64,000 bases of DNA from Deinococcales bacterium (GTDB taxonomy: Bacteria; Deinococcota; Deinococci; Deinococcales; JAAFIG01): NCBI GenBank assembly GCA_031414595.1, contig JANNVX010000004.1:17047-81046 (forward strand), read 5' to 3'. This document shows positions 39,001 to 45,000 of this stretch, one piece after another (position 1 is the stretch's first letter; every line of letters starts with the position of its first letter). The position numbers were made by a program.

Positions 39001-42000
39001 CTCGAGGTTACAACGCGATTTATCCGACTCGAGCGCCCTGCGTAACATTGGCGTGGGCTTGGCACACACCATGATTGCGTTCTCGAGCTTAAAAGCTGGA
39101 ATTGCCAAACTCGAAGTCAACACAACCAAAATTGCCGCCGACCTTGAAAACGAATGGATGCTCTTAGCCGAACCAATTCAAACGGTCATGCGAAAATACA
39201 ATGTGCCAAATGGGTATGAGCGTATGAAAGACCTGACTCGAGGTGAATCTGTTAATGCTGCTACAATGCAAGCCTTTATTTCGAGCCTCGAGATTCCAGA
39301 AACCGATAAAAAACGCCTCCTCGAGATGCGCCCAAGTTCGTATGTGGGTTTAGCGGCTGAATTGGTCTCGGAAATTGGCTAGACTAAGGCTAAGAGGTGA
39401 AGCATGAAAACGGTTACAATTTCACAATTTGAAGCAGATGTCCATGAACTCCTAAAAGCATTAGGTGATGGCGAAACAATTACAATTGAAAAAGATGGCG
39501 AACCATTTCTTGAATTGCAAGGCAAAAAGACAAAAACAAGCAATTGGTCGCCAGAGGTACAAGCACATTTGGACAATCCCAATCCTCATTGGTATCTCGA
39601 GCCTGACCCGTTTCCACGAGAAGTAGATTAAGGCGTGTTTTTGCTATCTGTCCCAATGACCCAATCAAAACTATTCACGGCTTCTTGCAGAGAATCGTAC
39701 AGTGTCAAGTCTTTAGTCAACTCTGAATAGATAAGTTGGTCAAGGAAATATGCTTCATGGTCAAGGAAGTATTGAGTAGGGTTTTTGCGATTTATCGGAT
39801 CGCAATTTAGAGCAGCAAACCTACCATCTGACAGACTCTTAATGCAATGAATGCGATATAAAGCTCCTTCAGCCGTTTTTGTATAAACTTTAATATGTTC
39901 AAAAAATTCCTGCATACTCCACTCTATCTCTTCAAGCACGTATCTGCAATTTCATTGAGGTTTTTATAAAAAAAGTTAGGACACAACCTTGAAACCCCGT
40001 CTGATTGTCTTGATTTCTGGCGCTGGAACAAACCTCCAAGCCCTGATAGATGCTGTGCAGAACGATATTCTCGAGATGGAAATTGCATTAGTTGTCTCAA
40101 ATCGCAAAGCTGCATTTGGTCTCGAGCGAGCTAAAAATGCTGGTATCCCCACGCTGTATTTTCCCTTAAAACCCTATAAAGATGCCGGCAAAACTCGAGA
40201 AGATTTTGACACCGATTTAGCCAAAATTCTCGAGCAGCACAACCCAGATTTAATTGTTTTAGCGGGTTGGATGCACATTGATTCTGGTGCGTTATGTCAG
40301 ACTTTTCTTGGGCGAATTATTAACTTGCACCCAGCCTTACCCAACGAATTTGCTGGCGCTCATGCGATAGAAGATGCTTTTGCTGCGTGGCAACGCGGTG
40401 AAATCTCGAGGTCGGGCTGCATGGTGCATCATGTGATTCCAGAATTGGACGCAGGAGAAGTGATTGTAACAAAGGAAATACCGTTTATGGTAGGTGATAC
40501 GCTCGAGACATTTGCATCTCGAGTACATGAAGCTGAACACCAGATTATTGTAGAAGCCACAAAGAAAATGCTTTCGTAGGGGCGAACCTTGTGTTCGCCC
40601 TGTGCAGCACATGCCCTTTTCAAGAATGTCCAGCAAGACATCCATTGGAGGAGAAATAAAATGTCCACATACCGAATTGAAATCCGCAACCGTAATAATC
40701 TCGAGGTCAACCGCTCAAGACTATACTTTGTCAAAGCCCTAATTCTCGAGCAGCAAGCAGTCGAACGCCTCTGCCGTGAAGTCTTATGCGACCCTGTGAC
40801 CGAATCATTTGTCGTGCAAACCGTAGGGGCGAGGCATGCCTCGCCCCTACAACCAAACATTTCTTTTTTTGAATTAACCCTCCAAGCTGGTGTAACCGAT
40901 TCTGCCGCCGAAAGCCTGCTCGAGGCGGCAAAAATCTTAAGCATCCCGCTCGAGTCGGCTGCGACTGGCGAACGCTTTGAATATGCCCAAGAAACCACAC
41001 TCGAGGAACTAAAAGTCTTAGCCCATGAACGTGCCAACGAAGTCATCGAACGCTTCACCTTAAACCAAGAAATCACCCCACCATTTGTTGAACACGCGAA
41101 CCTTTCCAGCGCCGAAGTCGAGTACACCGATTTGCGTGGCGTAACTGATGCCCGTCTGCTTGAGGTATCCAAGGAACGCCGCCTAGCACTGGATTTACTC
41201 GAGATGCAAGCTGTTAAAGCCTATTATGAAAAAGAAAACCGCCCAGCCGCCGATGTTGAACTCGAGATGATTGCCCAAACGTGGTCAGAGCATTGTGTCC
41301 ATAAGACCTTTCGGGCGCGTATCGAAACCAACACGGGCGAAGTGGTGAATGGCTTACTGAAAACCTTTATCGCCAAAGCCACCAAAGACTTAAATAAATC
41401 GTGGGTGCGCTCAGCATTTGTAGATAACGCTGGAATTATCGAATTCGATGATGATTATGATGTGGCTGTGAAAGTCGAAACCCATAATCATCCAAGCGCC
41501 CTCGAGCCGTTTGGTGGGGCAAATACCGGTGTCGGTGGCGTGATTCGTGATGTGCTGGCATTGGGCGCAAAACCGATTGCCAATATGGATGTCTTGTGCT
41601 TTGGGAGTCTCGAGCAGGAATCTGTGCCAGACGGTGTGCTGCACCCTAAACGTGTTCAAGAAGGTGTGGTGCGAGGCATCGAAGACTACGGCAATAAAAT
41701 GGGTATTCCGACGGTCAATGGTGCGGTTTTGTACCACAAGGGTTATACCGCCAATCCACTGGTGTACTGCGGTTGCGTGGGTATCTTGCCAGCCTCGGTT
41801 AAAAACGCTAAGCCGCTCGAGGCAAAAGCAGGGGATTTAATCATCGCTATCGGTGGACGAACTGGGCGCGATGGTTTGCGCGGCGCGACCTTCTCGAGTT
41901 TAGAAATGGACACCAGCACTGCCGAAATTGCCAGTACCAGTGTACAAATTGGGCAGCCAATCACCGAGAAAAAAGTTCAAGAAGTGTTGCTTCGAGCTAA

Positions 42001-45000
42001 AGCCGAAGGTTTGTATACCGCCATGACCGATTGTGGTGCGGGTGGCTTCTCGAGCGCCGTCGGAGAAATGGGCAAAGACCTAGGCGCGTACATTCGCCTC
42101 GAGAATGCGCTCTTAAAGTATCCCGGTTTGCGCCCATGGGAAATCTGGTTATCCGAAGCCCAAGAACGCATGGTGCTGAGTGTGCCGCAGGGGAATTTAG
42201 AACCTTTACAAACCCTGTGCGATTCTCAAGATGTTGAACTGGTTCACTTGGGAGAGTTCACCGACTCCGAACGACTTGTTCTAACCCATGAAGGCAAAAC
42301 CGTTGGAGAACTTGACCTCGAGTTCCTGCATGAAGGCATTCCACAACGTCAACTAAAAGCCACTGTAGGGGAGAGGTATGCTTCGACCCTGACCGAGCGC
42401 GACCCTCGAGAAATAGACCCCGAAATAGATTTATTAAATTTACTAGCACACCCAAACATCCGTTCTCGAGAAAAAATTATTCGCCTTTTTGACCATGAAA
42501 TCAAAGGCGGCACCGCTGTTCGTCCTCTGGTTGGTGCTGCCAATCATGGACCCTCCGACGCAGCCGTGATTATTCCCAATCCGGGCAAGTCCCAAAAAGC
42601 CTTGGCGATTTCTAACGGCATCTGCCCGCAATTTGGCTTGTCCGACCCCTACGCCATGACATGGGCAGCCATAGACGAAGCCGTGCGAAACGCGGTTTGT
42701 GTTGGCGCTGACCCAGACCAAATTGCTATTCTCGATAATTTTTGCTGGGGCAACCCAACCCTGCCAGACCGCATGGGCAGCTTGCTCGAGACTTCACGGG
42801 CGTGTTATGACGCAGCGATGGCGTATGGCACACCATTTGTTTCGGGTAAGGACAGTTTGTACAACGAGTACACCGACGAGGACGGTAACAAACACGCCAT
42901 TCCGGGAACGCTTCTAATCTCTGCGATTGGAATTGTGCCAGACGCAACAAAAACTGTAACAATGGATTTCAAGCAAGCGGGTAATTTGGTCTATCTATTG
43001 GGCGAAACTCGAGATGAATTGGGTCAAAGCCATTACGCGCTCATGCACGGTCTCGAGGGTGGGATTGTACCGCAACCGATTCAGAATCCGCTCGAGCGTT
43101 ACCGCGCTGTGCACCAAGCCATTCAAGAGGGTTTAGTCCAAAGCGCTCATGATTGCTCAGAAGGTGGTTTAGCCGTTGCCTTATCCGAAATGTGCCTTGC
43201 TGGACGGCTTGGGATGAACTGGCAACTGCTGGGGGACAACCAAGACCCTGTTTTTGATACCCAGACCATTTTATTTTCGGAAACGGCTGGTAGAATTGTT
43301 CTCGAGGTACGCCCAGAACACCAAGCACAACTCGAGATATTATTCGCGGGTATTTCACTCTCTCAAATTGGTTTGGTCACAGCCGAACCAGAATTCATTG
43401 TTTTTTTTGGAATGGATGAAGTCATAGAAACCCCCATTGATGTTCTCGAGATGGCATGGCGTGATGAAATCGCTCCAAATCCTGTTCCAACCGTAGGGGC
43501 GAGGCATGCCTCGCCCTTGCCCTCGCCCGTCGTAAAAGCAGGACAGACACAGGGGGCTGTCCCTACAAGTACAACAAAAACCAAAACCATAATTATTCAT
43601 GCCAACGGCACAAACCGAGACCACGATGCAGCCTTGGCGGTTGAATTGGCTGGTGGAAACCCAGAAATTGTGCATTTGAACCAGCTTTTTGCTGGTCAGC
43701 GCAAACTCGAGGATTACGGTTTTTTAATTGTTCCTGGTGGTTTTTCGTATGGCGACGACCTCGGGGCAGGGGTGATGTGGGCTTTGGCATTGCGTGAAGG
43801 TCTTGGCGAACAACTCGAGAATTTTGTCTCGAGCGGCAAGCCAGTCTTGGGGATCTGCAATGGTTTCCAAACACTGGTAAAAGCGGGTGTCCTACCGGGC
43901 GGTTTTGAACCAAGAACCAGTACCCTGACGTACAACGCCCAAGGACATTTTGAATGCCGTTGGGTGACACTCGAGGCGAATCAAAACTCGAGCAGTTTTT
44001 GGTTGGCGGGTTTAGATGATGGTCTGGACACACCCATTGCCCACGGTGAAGGACGTTTCTTGTGTGATGATACAACCCTAGCGCATCTCGAGGAAAACAA
44101 CTTAGTGGCACTGCGTTACCTTGGCGATGAATACCCCACCAACCCAAACGGCAGCCTCTCGAGAATCGCGGGAATTACCAACGTGGCGGGCAATGTGCTT
44201 GGGCTAATGCCGCACCCAGAAAATCATATTTTTGATTGGCAACATCCGCGTTATCATCGTGGTGAGCGTGGGCGCAGTGGCTTGACGCTTTTTGAGAATG
44301 CGTTAAAGCAGATAAAATGACAAATCGGGAATTGTACCTTCATGTCAGTGCGATTTGTCAGGGAACGACTCACTCACTCGAGGATTATTTACTTGCCTTG
44401 TATACCTTGACTAAAGATTGTCCAGAAGATTCTATTCCGATTGGCAATTTTGCAGCTTTTCTTGAACAGGCTTTTGTGATTGAACCCTTGCCTTTTGATG
44501 AACAATGGTTTGAGATAAGCGTCCTAACCCTCAATTCTTGGCATGAGCTTTTGGCTTTTCAGATTGCCGATTTACGACGAATGCGTGTGGCGGGTTTATT
44601 AGACGGAATGAATACTTATTTTGGGATAGATTCTTCAAGCGGTGTTCGTTGGTACAATCTTGAACCCCTGACTTATTTGGAGTGTGCTGTACGGGGAACA
44701 TTTGGCGGATACGAAGCCGATGAGGTAATTATTTTGGTCTCAAGCCCCGATGGTGATAACAGTGAAGTATTTGCAATTGAATCAATCAGTGAACATGACT
44801 TTTTTAATTTTTTACAGTGCGGCGCAACTTATGAATAATTGCTTTAATCTAAGACTAATTAAAACCCAAATGCCTCGAGAACCACAGGCGGTATGCGTTT
44901 TGGGCGGTTGGTCACTGGGTCTATCCAAACCCAATTGGTTTTGATTTGTACCAATAGCGCATTGTCCTCGAGCCGTCGCATTTCGTGGTAGCGCACAGCC

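Follow-up and report, generated by a model that had tools for sequence, protein, structure and literature searches.

In an uncultured Deinococcales family, old REPs lying in frame inside protein-coding genes seem, judged from sequence comparisons, to be either renewed in place or selected as DNA or RNA, because the silent sites of their foot are conserved while the spacers diverge and the hairpin types are swapped. The analysis covered a stretch of 64,000 nt (the window) containing a purL gene with four in-frame REPs, the whole genome (G000) and related genomes. Going by its repeats and transposase genes, the arrangement is a REP/RAYT system of the described kind (subclass 2.4 of Quentin 2018; Di Nocera 2013).

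REP family and TIR-bounded copies

Using a strict rule (GTAGGG plus hairpin), 259 unique units were counted in the whole genome, compared with 7, 10 and 11 in three triplet-shuffled genomes, in agreement with the approximately 230 GTAG hairpins given in a preliminary description. A broader rule resulted in 311 REP units, 49 of which are split by a nested 38-bp element. The units are 24–28 bp long; they include long REPs whose stem has three G-C pairs at its base and REPs with a double foot. One REP type was matched in 16 of 19 family genomes and in none of 132 genomes sampled from elsewhere in the order. Another variant, of which G000 has no copy, is present in 27, 17, 6, 2, 7 and 10 copies in six congeners.

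The 51 fixed REPIN dimers reported previously are actually the core of an ISAzo13-type MITE of about 191 bp with at least 33 copies, many of them counted twice at contig ends. Among 52 dimer cores, 47 are cut by contig ends; the left TIR was found for 33, the right TIR for 27 and both for 8. Since a TIR follows wherever the contig extends far enough beyond a core, the fixed dimer does not occur as a free inverted doublet, the replicating unit that defines a REPIN (Bertels and Rainey 2011). Other inverted pairs, six of which have GTAG outward, are possible REPINs. A 3-bp target duplication is exact in 6 of 14 complete MITE copies, and the remaining copies are mostly flanked by TWA-like sequence on both sides. 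A PF07592 element of another genome (L085 in G006) has the same ends as the ISAzo13-type shell, and these are 92–93% identical to collapsed IS ends at contig ends of G000, 12 of which encode a transposase C-terminus. The PF07592 family search gave no match in G000, since the assembly there contains nothing of the IS but its ends. A second, unrelated shell holds a similar inverted REP pair; its autonomous partner was not found among the 13 TIR-like matches listed. In total, 175 of the 311 REP units sit in TIR-bounded shells, and since over half of the units are carried in this way, the REP copy number is no measure of RAYT activity. The REP types of the MITE core differ from the type most frequent in genes.

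RAYT genes

The PF01797 search of G000 found two RAYT genes only and no third Y1 transposase. Both gene products carry the HuH motif, the W, an Arg at W+10, the catalytic Tyr and, at Y+4, the Asn that is the third metal ligand (RAYT-a: DHIH, WE, YILENP; RAYT-b: DHVH, WQ, YIRNNP). The best family match of both is NF047646, split by the insert and, with 53 and 62.9 bits, below the cut-off of 80. For the predicted RAYT-a structure (pLDDT 87.6; 54–66 for the REP-coded residues, about 91–130), the best PDB match was 4ER8, the E. coli TnpA_REP (E 1.5e-6), with IS200/IS605 transposases close behind.

As described before, both genes contain REPs and are not flanked by them: the in-frame copies lie between HuH and Tyr, and none was found outside within 1 kb. 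The inverted pair in the C109 gene is present, although only one of its members is a common type (71 copies), the other being rare (3 copies); the C98 gene also carries an inverted pair, which is degenerate. Of the 25 RAYT loci in the family, 23 contain a REP in the segment from HuH to Tyr (one in the stop frame) and 8 have a flanking one within 1 kb (0 of 2 in G000). VG[AVETD] was found between HuH and Tyr in 86 of 130 scorable homologues, compared with 15% in control windows; of these homologues, 114 have WQ, and NH outnumbers DH. In six g1 genomes trpE lies upstream of a syntenic RAYT-a, and all six genes have the internal REP pair at the same position. The core dN/dS of RAYT-a is 0.09–0.35 (15 pairs), a range indicating that the gene is under purifying selection. 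G008 (82% complete) is the sole congener without RAYT and REP matches, and it also has no inserts in IleRS, MetH and DnaE. G004 (84% complete) has REPs and no RAYT match, which counts against a renewal by RAYT.

According to Quentin 2018 (PMC6006769), TnpA_REP subclass 2.4 is recognised by in-frame REPs inside the RAYT gene and by REPs with a double foot; internal REP insertion predominates in it, and its consensus is NH[IFV]H, WQ and YIxNNP. The system described here resembles this subclass, which corresponds to RAYT group 4 (PMC6006769; Bertels 2017, 10.1101/119735), in its in-frame REPs between HuH and Tyr, its long REPs with three G-C pairs, its double-foot REPs and its few vertically inherited RAYT copies. 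It differs in having DH[IV]H instead of NH[IFV]H, in the WE and YILENP of RAYT-a, and in the lack of REPs flanking either G000 RAYT, which are present at the 8 family loci mentioned above. The passages on subclass 2.4 consulted in these two sources do not name the host family, and no connection between restriction systems and RAYT group 4 was found in 10.1101/119735.

In-frame REPs in purL and other genes

Genes were called with a dicodon model (ORFs of at least 100 codons), and five called intragenic matches (C13, C28, C41:141848, C54, C109:81931) were removed as false. The remaining 34 REP units in 20 called genes comprise 30 in 18 host genes and 4 in the two RAYT genes. All ten genes named previously as hosts, such as those of PurL, MetH, DnaE, IleRS and RlhA (the name given there to a U32 peptidase with DUF3656), are among the 18. 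Additional hosts encode DnaX, a NuoC-type subunit, XdhC, a Nudix hydrolase, an AMP-binding enzyme, a carboxyltransferase-domain protein, HlyD (with an uncertain start) and one protein without a family.

The genome is 88% coding, yet only 34 of the 136 free REPs are intragenic, which is a depletion. Of the sense copies, 17 are in frame 0, 3 in frame 1 and none in the TAG frame. Intragenic REPs were found in both orientations. Genes already hit carry 4 extra sites compared with 0.09 expected, a clustering that may be due to a small number of multidomain genes with high tolerance. The earlier placement of the peptides at domain linkers applies to many sites, which lie between domains, but not to MetH 1058, IleRS 340 and Pgl, where the REP is inside a Pfam domain, nor fully to PurL site 2, which adds no net length. 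PurL, MetH, Pgl, RecQ and Dcm are generally at most conditionally essential, and the REP-coded peptides are probably near-neutral spacers.

The following features were annotated in the window:

10650..10712, − strand: REP split by a nested 38-bp hairpin element (10665–10701), in frame inside a Nudix hydrolase gene (10330–11286, + strand)
14612..14714, + strand: intergenic cluster of a nested 38-bp element (14612–14648) within a degenerate REP, followed by a REP (14690–14714)
39989..40579, + strand: purN (TIGR00639 above cut-off), last gene ahead of purL in the purD/purM-purB-purN-purL cluster
40576..40601, + strand: REP at the purN end, its GTAG providing the purN TAG stop codon
40661..44320, + strand: purL, fused PurL-PurQ FGAM synthase of 1219 aa, with four in-frame REPs at three sites and no stop
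40823..40850, no strand assigned: PurL site 1, double-foot GTAG...CTAC REP, coding for VGARHASPL (aa 55–63) in the N-terminal region
42365..42390, + strand: PurL site 2, degenerate REP, coding for VGERYASTL (aa 569–577), in place of the linker between the two AIRS halves
43493..43516, + strand: PurL site 3a, REP coding for VGARHASP (aa 945–952) in the PurL-PurQ linker (between aa 936 and 973)
43540..43566, − strand: PurL site 3b, inverted partner REP of a common type, read from the other strand as GQTQGAVPT

The purL product, a single match in the genome, exceeds the cut-offs of TIGR01736 (aa 189–936) and TIGR01737 (aa 976–1215). In the Logan contigs of run X1 its stretch is spread over four abutting pieces, which match it without a difference; as X1 is a possible DNA source, this is not an independent confirmation. 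Among the sequencing runs listed as containing this DNA, none is of RNA. No convincing REP-less purL joint was found in contigs of four DNA runs. An AlphaFold model of PurL (12-sequence alignment) was discarded due to a mean pLDDT of 39.9. Site 1 has a perfect stem of 12 bp (−14.1 kcal/mol as DNA), and its position is occupied by a REP in 4 of 5 g1 and both g5 orthologues. The stem of site 2 is weak (−2.4 kcal/mol) and has decayed in G000; with 41 aa compared with 39–45 aa in REP-free orthologues, there is zero net length gain, and the site aligns without gaps to the linker of the T. thermophilus-type PurL 3viu_A. TAG stops supplied by the GTAG of a REP, as in purN, occur in four cases in the genome.

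In-frame GTAG REPs have been described in DNA polymerase, repair and tRNA-synthetase genes by Di Nocera 2013 (PMC3733652), where flexible loops were put forward to explain their tolerance. Single, paired and multiple in-frame REPs, double insertions in one gene and GTAG-supplied TAG stops are common to both data sets, whereas the main text of that work does not mention Deinococcus, and the sections consulted do not test whether silent positions are conserved at orthologous sites. Palindromic DNA in frame in functional proteins is also known from the Rickettsia palindromic elements (Ogata 2000, cited in PMC3733652 and PMC3184786), but RPE-1 measures 105–146 bp, compared with units of 24–28 bp tied to a RAYT here. 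Likewise, QMITE2 of Coxiella (PMC5896051) is a TIR-bounded MITE of about 190 bp carrying a GTAG REP; the shell found here differs in its ISAzo13 element ends, TWA-like flanks and inverted REP pair.

Turnover and silent sites at orthologous REPs

Assuming that the genus labels are the same as in the preliminary description, its absence of inserts from g3 and g4 is correct for every assembled MetH and IleRS site, but not for PurL, as a REP is located at site 2 in 5 of 6 g4 genomes. Its repeated recent insertion at the same linkers agrees with PurL site 2, where the REPs of g1 and g4 have different offsets, and with the purN-purL junction, where REP types differ between g1, g4 and g5. In DnaE, an inverted REP pair is common to six congeners and absent from G008 and all other genera; its spacer is alignable but diverged, G000 and G002 differing at 21 of 58 positions, whereas the two REPs of the pair match exactly. 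From this alignment, the DnaE insert is one ancestral event. The earlier account stands for the family, its REP/RAYT identity and the in-frame peptides, but not for the REPIN dimers, a general absence from g3/g4 or a recent repeated insertion in DnaE.

The MetH-1055 and DnaE pairs each share the same 5′ junction and alignable diverged spacers across congeners, and decayed remnants in IleRS (G007), MetH (G003) and PurL (G006) indicate old occupants. Both g1 and g5 retain PurL sites 1 and 3, with a protein divergence of 27% between them. Orthologous sites carry different hairpin types, and hairpin sequence and number vary at the same site, including nested insertions of 39 nt and losses in sister species; in 7 of 39 orthologous rows the REP is missing or lost. 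An apparent 9-bp duplication in dnaE was rejected, as the orthologues do not share it. A general target duplication was not supported (repeats of at least 5 bp: 6 vs. 3.1, P 0.09; at least 7 bp: 2 vs. 0.2, P 0.02), and no fixed CT/CA cleavage dinucleotide was seen upstream of the foot.

Silent sites were compared at orthologous positions picked because G000 carries a REP there, using the orthologues that still show the VG[AEV] peptide (32 of 39 rows); MetH-371 was left out since the rule for the peptide also picked up a VGER motif native to the protein. In the V-G-A codons of the GTAGGGGCG foot, 3 parsimony changes were counted at silent sites compared with 24.1 expected (17 columns). Without G000 and g5 the values are 3 and 18.2 (P 5e-6), for the unpaired GTA alone 1 and 6.1 (P 0.008), and for the held-out DnaE 0 and 4.4. 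This test does not separate renewal from selection.

Proposed mechanism and meaning

We consider it reasonably probable that the system works like TnpA_REP subclass 2.4 (RAYT group 4) and that intragenic REPs persist and are remodelled or renewed in place via the RAYT. A vertically inherited HUH-Y1 nuclease would bind single-stranded GTAG-footed hairpins, nick nearby and join strands, by analogy with RAYT groups 2 and 3, the only ones for which PMC8266576 reports GTAG-dependent cleavage and strand transfer on single-stranded REPs; "group 4" does not occur there. New REPs would land anywhere, and selection retains intergenic copies or in-frame copies in tolerant loops, linkers and tails, as the depletion and the frame bias show; the RAYT, too, offers such a site in its variable loop. 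Once installed, an intragenic REP outlives speciation with foot and stem intact, its hairpin changing among the current types of the genome, while partners, nested elements and deletions come and go, as the orthologues show. RAYT-initiated nicking and copying from other REPs would renew it. More than half of the copies have multiplied passively in two TIR-bounded mini-elements, as is shown for the ISAzo13-type shell. The stronger statement that subclass-2.4 RAYTs rewrite existing REPs in place in essential genes and in their own gene, with the foot kept and the hairpin swapped, is put forward tentatively.

Purifying selection on the hairpins for some role as DNA or RNA (mRNA hairpin, interdomain ribosome pausing, binding of RAYT or another protein) would account for the conserved silent sites in foot and stem, for the persistence of PurL sites 1 and 3 from g1 to g5 and for the many sites between domains. 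We regard it as unlikely, given that hairpin sequence and number change freely at one site, both orientations occur, 7 of 39 rows lack the REP and the site 2 stem has decayed in G000. A recent insertion that each species acquired independently at the same linkers, as proposed originally, would also leave silent sites intact and fits the offsets at PurL site 2 and the types at the purN-purL junction; it is contradicted for DnaE, and the diverged spacers and common 5′ junctions of the DnaE and MetH-1055 pairs, the decayed remnants and the constant position of the RAYT-a pair make it very improbable in general.

Finally, template switching from arm to arm and gene conversion among dispersed copies could maintain the hairpins, and MITEs could spread them, with no present part for the RAYT. 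The share of units in TIR shells, one of which has ISAzo13 element ends, and the lack of REPs flanking the G000 RAYTs point in this direction, and a swap between the two commonest single variants can, by our reasoning, result when one hairpin arm serves as the template for the other, with no RAYT involved, which counts against renewal by it. Arm-to-arm copying could not preserve the unpaired GTA, however, and repeats of 24 bp are short for homologous conversion. As RAYT-a is also under purifying selection by its dN/dS and the MITE core types are not the commonest in genes, this explanation appears quite improbable. Under the tentative reading that RAYTs rewrite existing REPs in place, each old intragenic REP would be a standing editing site that turns over a linker peptide and attracts further REPs locally as well as nested mini-elements, and this would provide an in vivo footprint of REP maintenance and of the "orthoswitch" process. 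In the latter (Nunvar 2013, PMC3686654), differing REP classes likewise lie beside orthologous syntenic RAYTs, by a mechanism left open there; old REPs decay after the switch in that model, whereas here types are swapped in place in coding sequence with the foot intact.

The headline features of the system are already in print, and the finding mainly extends subclass 2.4 to an uncultured Deinococcales family. The new part, as far as the alignments reach, is the silent-site conservation of old intragenic REPs despite spacer divergence and hairpin swaps. In largely non-subscription literature, supplements aside, no report was found of REPs in this family or of in-place renewal of intragenic REPs. 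REP persistence and type change are treated as an open question in the REP/RAYT literature consulted, where group 4 enzymes are unassayed. Coding sequence serves as a natural control here, as silent positions show that old REPs are not decaying neutrally. The family offers orthologous filled, swapped, decayed and empty REP sites, together with a compact RAYT enzyme whose own gene carries its putative substrate.

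REPs in purL and in other host genes

The draft genome of the focal organism (G000; 4.49 Mb, 47.2% GC, 120 contigs) encodes in the window (C4:17047-81046) a fused PurL-PurQ protein of 1219 aa, whose gene (window 40661-44320) closes the purD/purM-purB-purN-purL cluster and gave a single match in a search of this genome. Four REPs, which are hairpins with a GTAG foot, were located at three sites within purL, and purN owes its stop codon to a fifth.

40823-40850, double-foot palindrome REP
42365-42390, decayed REP
43493-43566, inverted REP pair

When GTAGGG and a hairpin were both required, the genome gave 259 unique units, distributed over 184 loci, compared to 7-11 in shuffled genomes, which confirms the family proposed in the preliminary description. 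A broader rule yielded 311 units, 49 of them interrupted by a nested element. REP units were found within 20 of the called genes, 34 in all, with 30 in 18 host genes (22 sites) and four in the two genes for RAYT, the HUH-Y1 transposase-like protein tied to REPs. All ten host genes named previously were recovered. Their sites had been described as domain linkers, which applies to some, but others are tails or loops inside domains. Relative to the REP-free G008 orthologues, the inserts add 36 codons to DnaE and 14 to IleRS, whereas PurL site 2 shows no gain in length against REP-free orthologues.

REP insertions are filtered by selection. By our gene calls, coding sequence makes up about 88% of the genome, yet no more than 34 of the 136 free REPs fall inside genes. 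The sense intragenic copies are read 17 times in the V-G frame, three times in the next frame and never in the TAG-reading frame. Genes already hit carry four extra sites (0.09 expected), and 29 of 105 free loci lie within 3 kb of another (13 expected, with intergenic space not being uniform). Neither a target duplication rule nor a fixed cut site was found at the REPs of this genome. Di Nocera et al. (2013; PMC3733652) report GTAG REPs lying in frame in genes for polymerases, repair proteins and tRNA synthetases, as well as stop codons supplied by GTAG; the REPs in the polymerase and tRNA-synthetase genes and the purN stop codon agree with these examples.

In addition to its REPs, DnaE (L062, C102:31809-37115) has an intein containing a LAGLIDADG domain, and TilS (L072, C41:50327-52051), with a REP pair in its own part, is fused to a TadA-like deaminase. 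Elsewhere in the window, the protein encoded at 11752-13743 (663 aa) weakly matches type II adenine methyltransferases (TIGR02987, below cut-off), and two 166-nt copies, 78% alike, lie at 17997-18162 and 20415-20580, one at the valS 3′ end. CTCGAG occurs about every 190 bases genome-wide, 24 times as often as a zero-order model predicts, with 385 sites in the window, while TGCGCA, GGCGCC, GTGCAC and GAGCAC are strongly avoided.

MITE shells and the nested element

The 51 fixed REPIN dimers described previously have to be reinterpreted as MITE cargo. The identical dimers, 52 by our count, form the core of an element of about 191 bp with terminal inverted repeats (TIRs). Contig ends cut 47 of the cores; the left TIR was found for 33, the right for 27 and both for eight, so that at least 33 distinct copies exist. 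The ends match those of an ISAzo13-family element assembled in the related genome G006, which in turn share 92-93% identity with collapsed IS ends of the focal genome. This shell holds 128 REP units and a second, unrelated one 47, and most of the REP copy number therefore says little about RAYT. In the second shell, whose ends read AGAGCCTCCGAAA, there is a related REP pair, often accompanied by the nested element; no autonomous partner of this shell was found among the 13 TIR-like hits listed. Its copies include:

C8:2633-2808
C74:3121-3283
C95:39319-39516

The nested hairpin element (36-39 bp) has 59 simple copies genome-wide, 35 of which target REP hairpins by our flank rule; other hairpins and the element itself are also hit. 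It occurs in frame within PurL, MetH and DnaE orthologues too. No cognate enzyme was found. Two copies lie in the window:

10665-10701, minus strand
14612-14648, plus strand

RAYT genes

RAYT-a (on C109) and RAYT-b (on C98) both contain HuH, Trp and Tyr with Asn four residues on, and both score below the NCBIfam cut-off. RAYT-a was modelled with confidence outside the REP-coded loop, and its best structural match is E. coli TnpA_REP. In sequence, the named records nearest to the RAYT query are Deinococcales MAGs. Quentin et al. (2018; PMC6006769) describe for subclass 2.4 long and double-foot REPs and REPs in frame in their own genes between HuH and Y. The RAYTs studied here match this subclass in their in-frame REPs and in the long and double-foot REPs of the genome. 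The REP between HuH and Tyr is a general trait of these RAYTs, present in 23 of 25 family loci (25 proteins from 30 loci) and, of the best 149 homologues, in 86 of the 130 that could be scored. In the related genome G011, RAYT (L034, C18) is interrupted by a REP in the TAG-reading frame.

RAYT-a lies downstream of trpE in six congeners (dN/dS 0.09-0.35). In the focal genome it is flanked by runs of a GCAAAAG-like heptamer hairpin and directly followed by a 91-aa ORF (L001:3938-4213) that presumably resembles the N-terminus of a tryptophanyl-tRNA synthetase; at this position G003 has a longer ORF similar in sequence. RAYT-b (L002:5765-6469) sits inside a type I restriction-modification cluster, with the methyltransferase gene on one side and the specificity gene on the other. 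The arrangement is the same in G006, where the tandem DHDQNPVR repeat of the RAYT-b loop is longer.

Age and persistence of intragenic REPs

Recent repeated insertion at the same sites, with absence from genera g3 and g4, had been proposed. MetH and IleRS REPs are indeed confined to g1, the genus of the focal organism, wherever the site was assembled. PurL REPs occupy three sites in g1, sites 1 and 3 in g5, and no site in g2 or g3 orthologues, but site 2 carries a REP at a different offset in five of six g4 genomes. In the alignments, the REPs at PurL site 2 and at the purN-purL junction seem to have been gained independently, in line with repeated insertion. Against it stands dnaE, where one inverted pair is common to six congeners but does not occur in G008 or in any other genus. 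Between G000 and G002 the two REPs of the pair are identical, whereas 21 of the 58 spacer positions differ. At silent sites, the host genes of the congeners sharing the pair have diverged by 0.23-0.56. Together with decayed remnants in several lineages, this shows that most sites are old, with turnover. The MetH linker near aa 330-385 contains, in L093 (G005) and L097 (G017), the GCAAAAG-like hairpin, a third repeat type, and no GTAG REPs.

Neutral decay does not describe the old intragenic REPs. Third positions of V, G and A codons at six site-sets show three parsimony changes, whereas the same amino acids in other parts of the genes predict 24.1; the count covers the 32 of 39 rows that retain the peptide, at sites ascertained in the focal genome and among kin that are not independent. 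Without G000 and g5, three changes versus 18.2 remain, and the unpaired GTA foot alone shows one versus 6.1; DnaE, held out before, has none versus 4.4. Selection on the hairpin itself could keep the REPs in this state. At the same time, hairpin types swap at the same orthologous site, inside RAYT-a too, and one variant lacking in the focal genome is present in all six REP-bearing congeners; conversion among REP copies without RAYT could produce such swaps.

GTAG-guided nicking and strand transfer is demonstrated for RAYT groups 2 and 3 (PMC8266576). The same activity would seed REPs here and might also renew them in place, the renewal being a reading that we rate somewhat below even odds. Nunvar et al. 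(2013; PMC3686654) report REP type switches beside orthologous RAYT genes with old copies left to decay, whereas here old REPs persist while types swap. Renewal in place by RAYT is the part of the finding that is worth testing.
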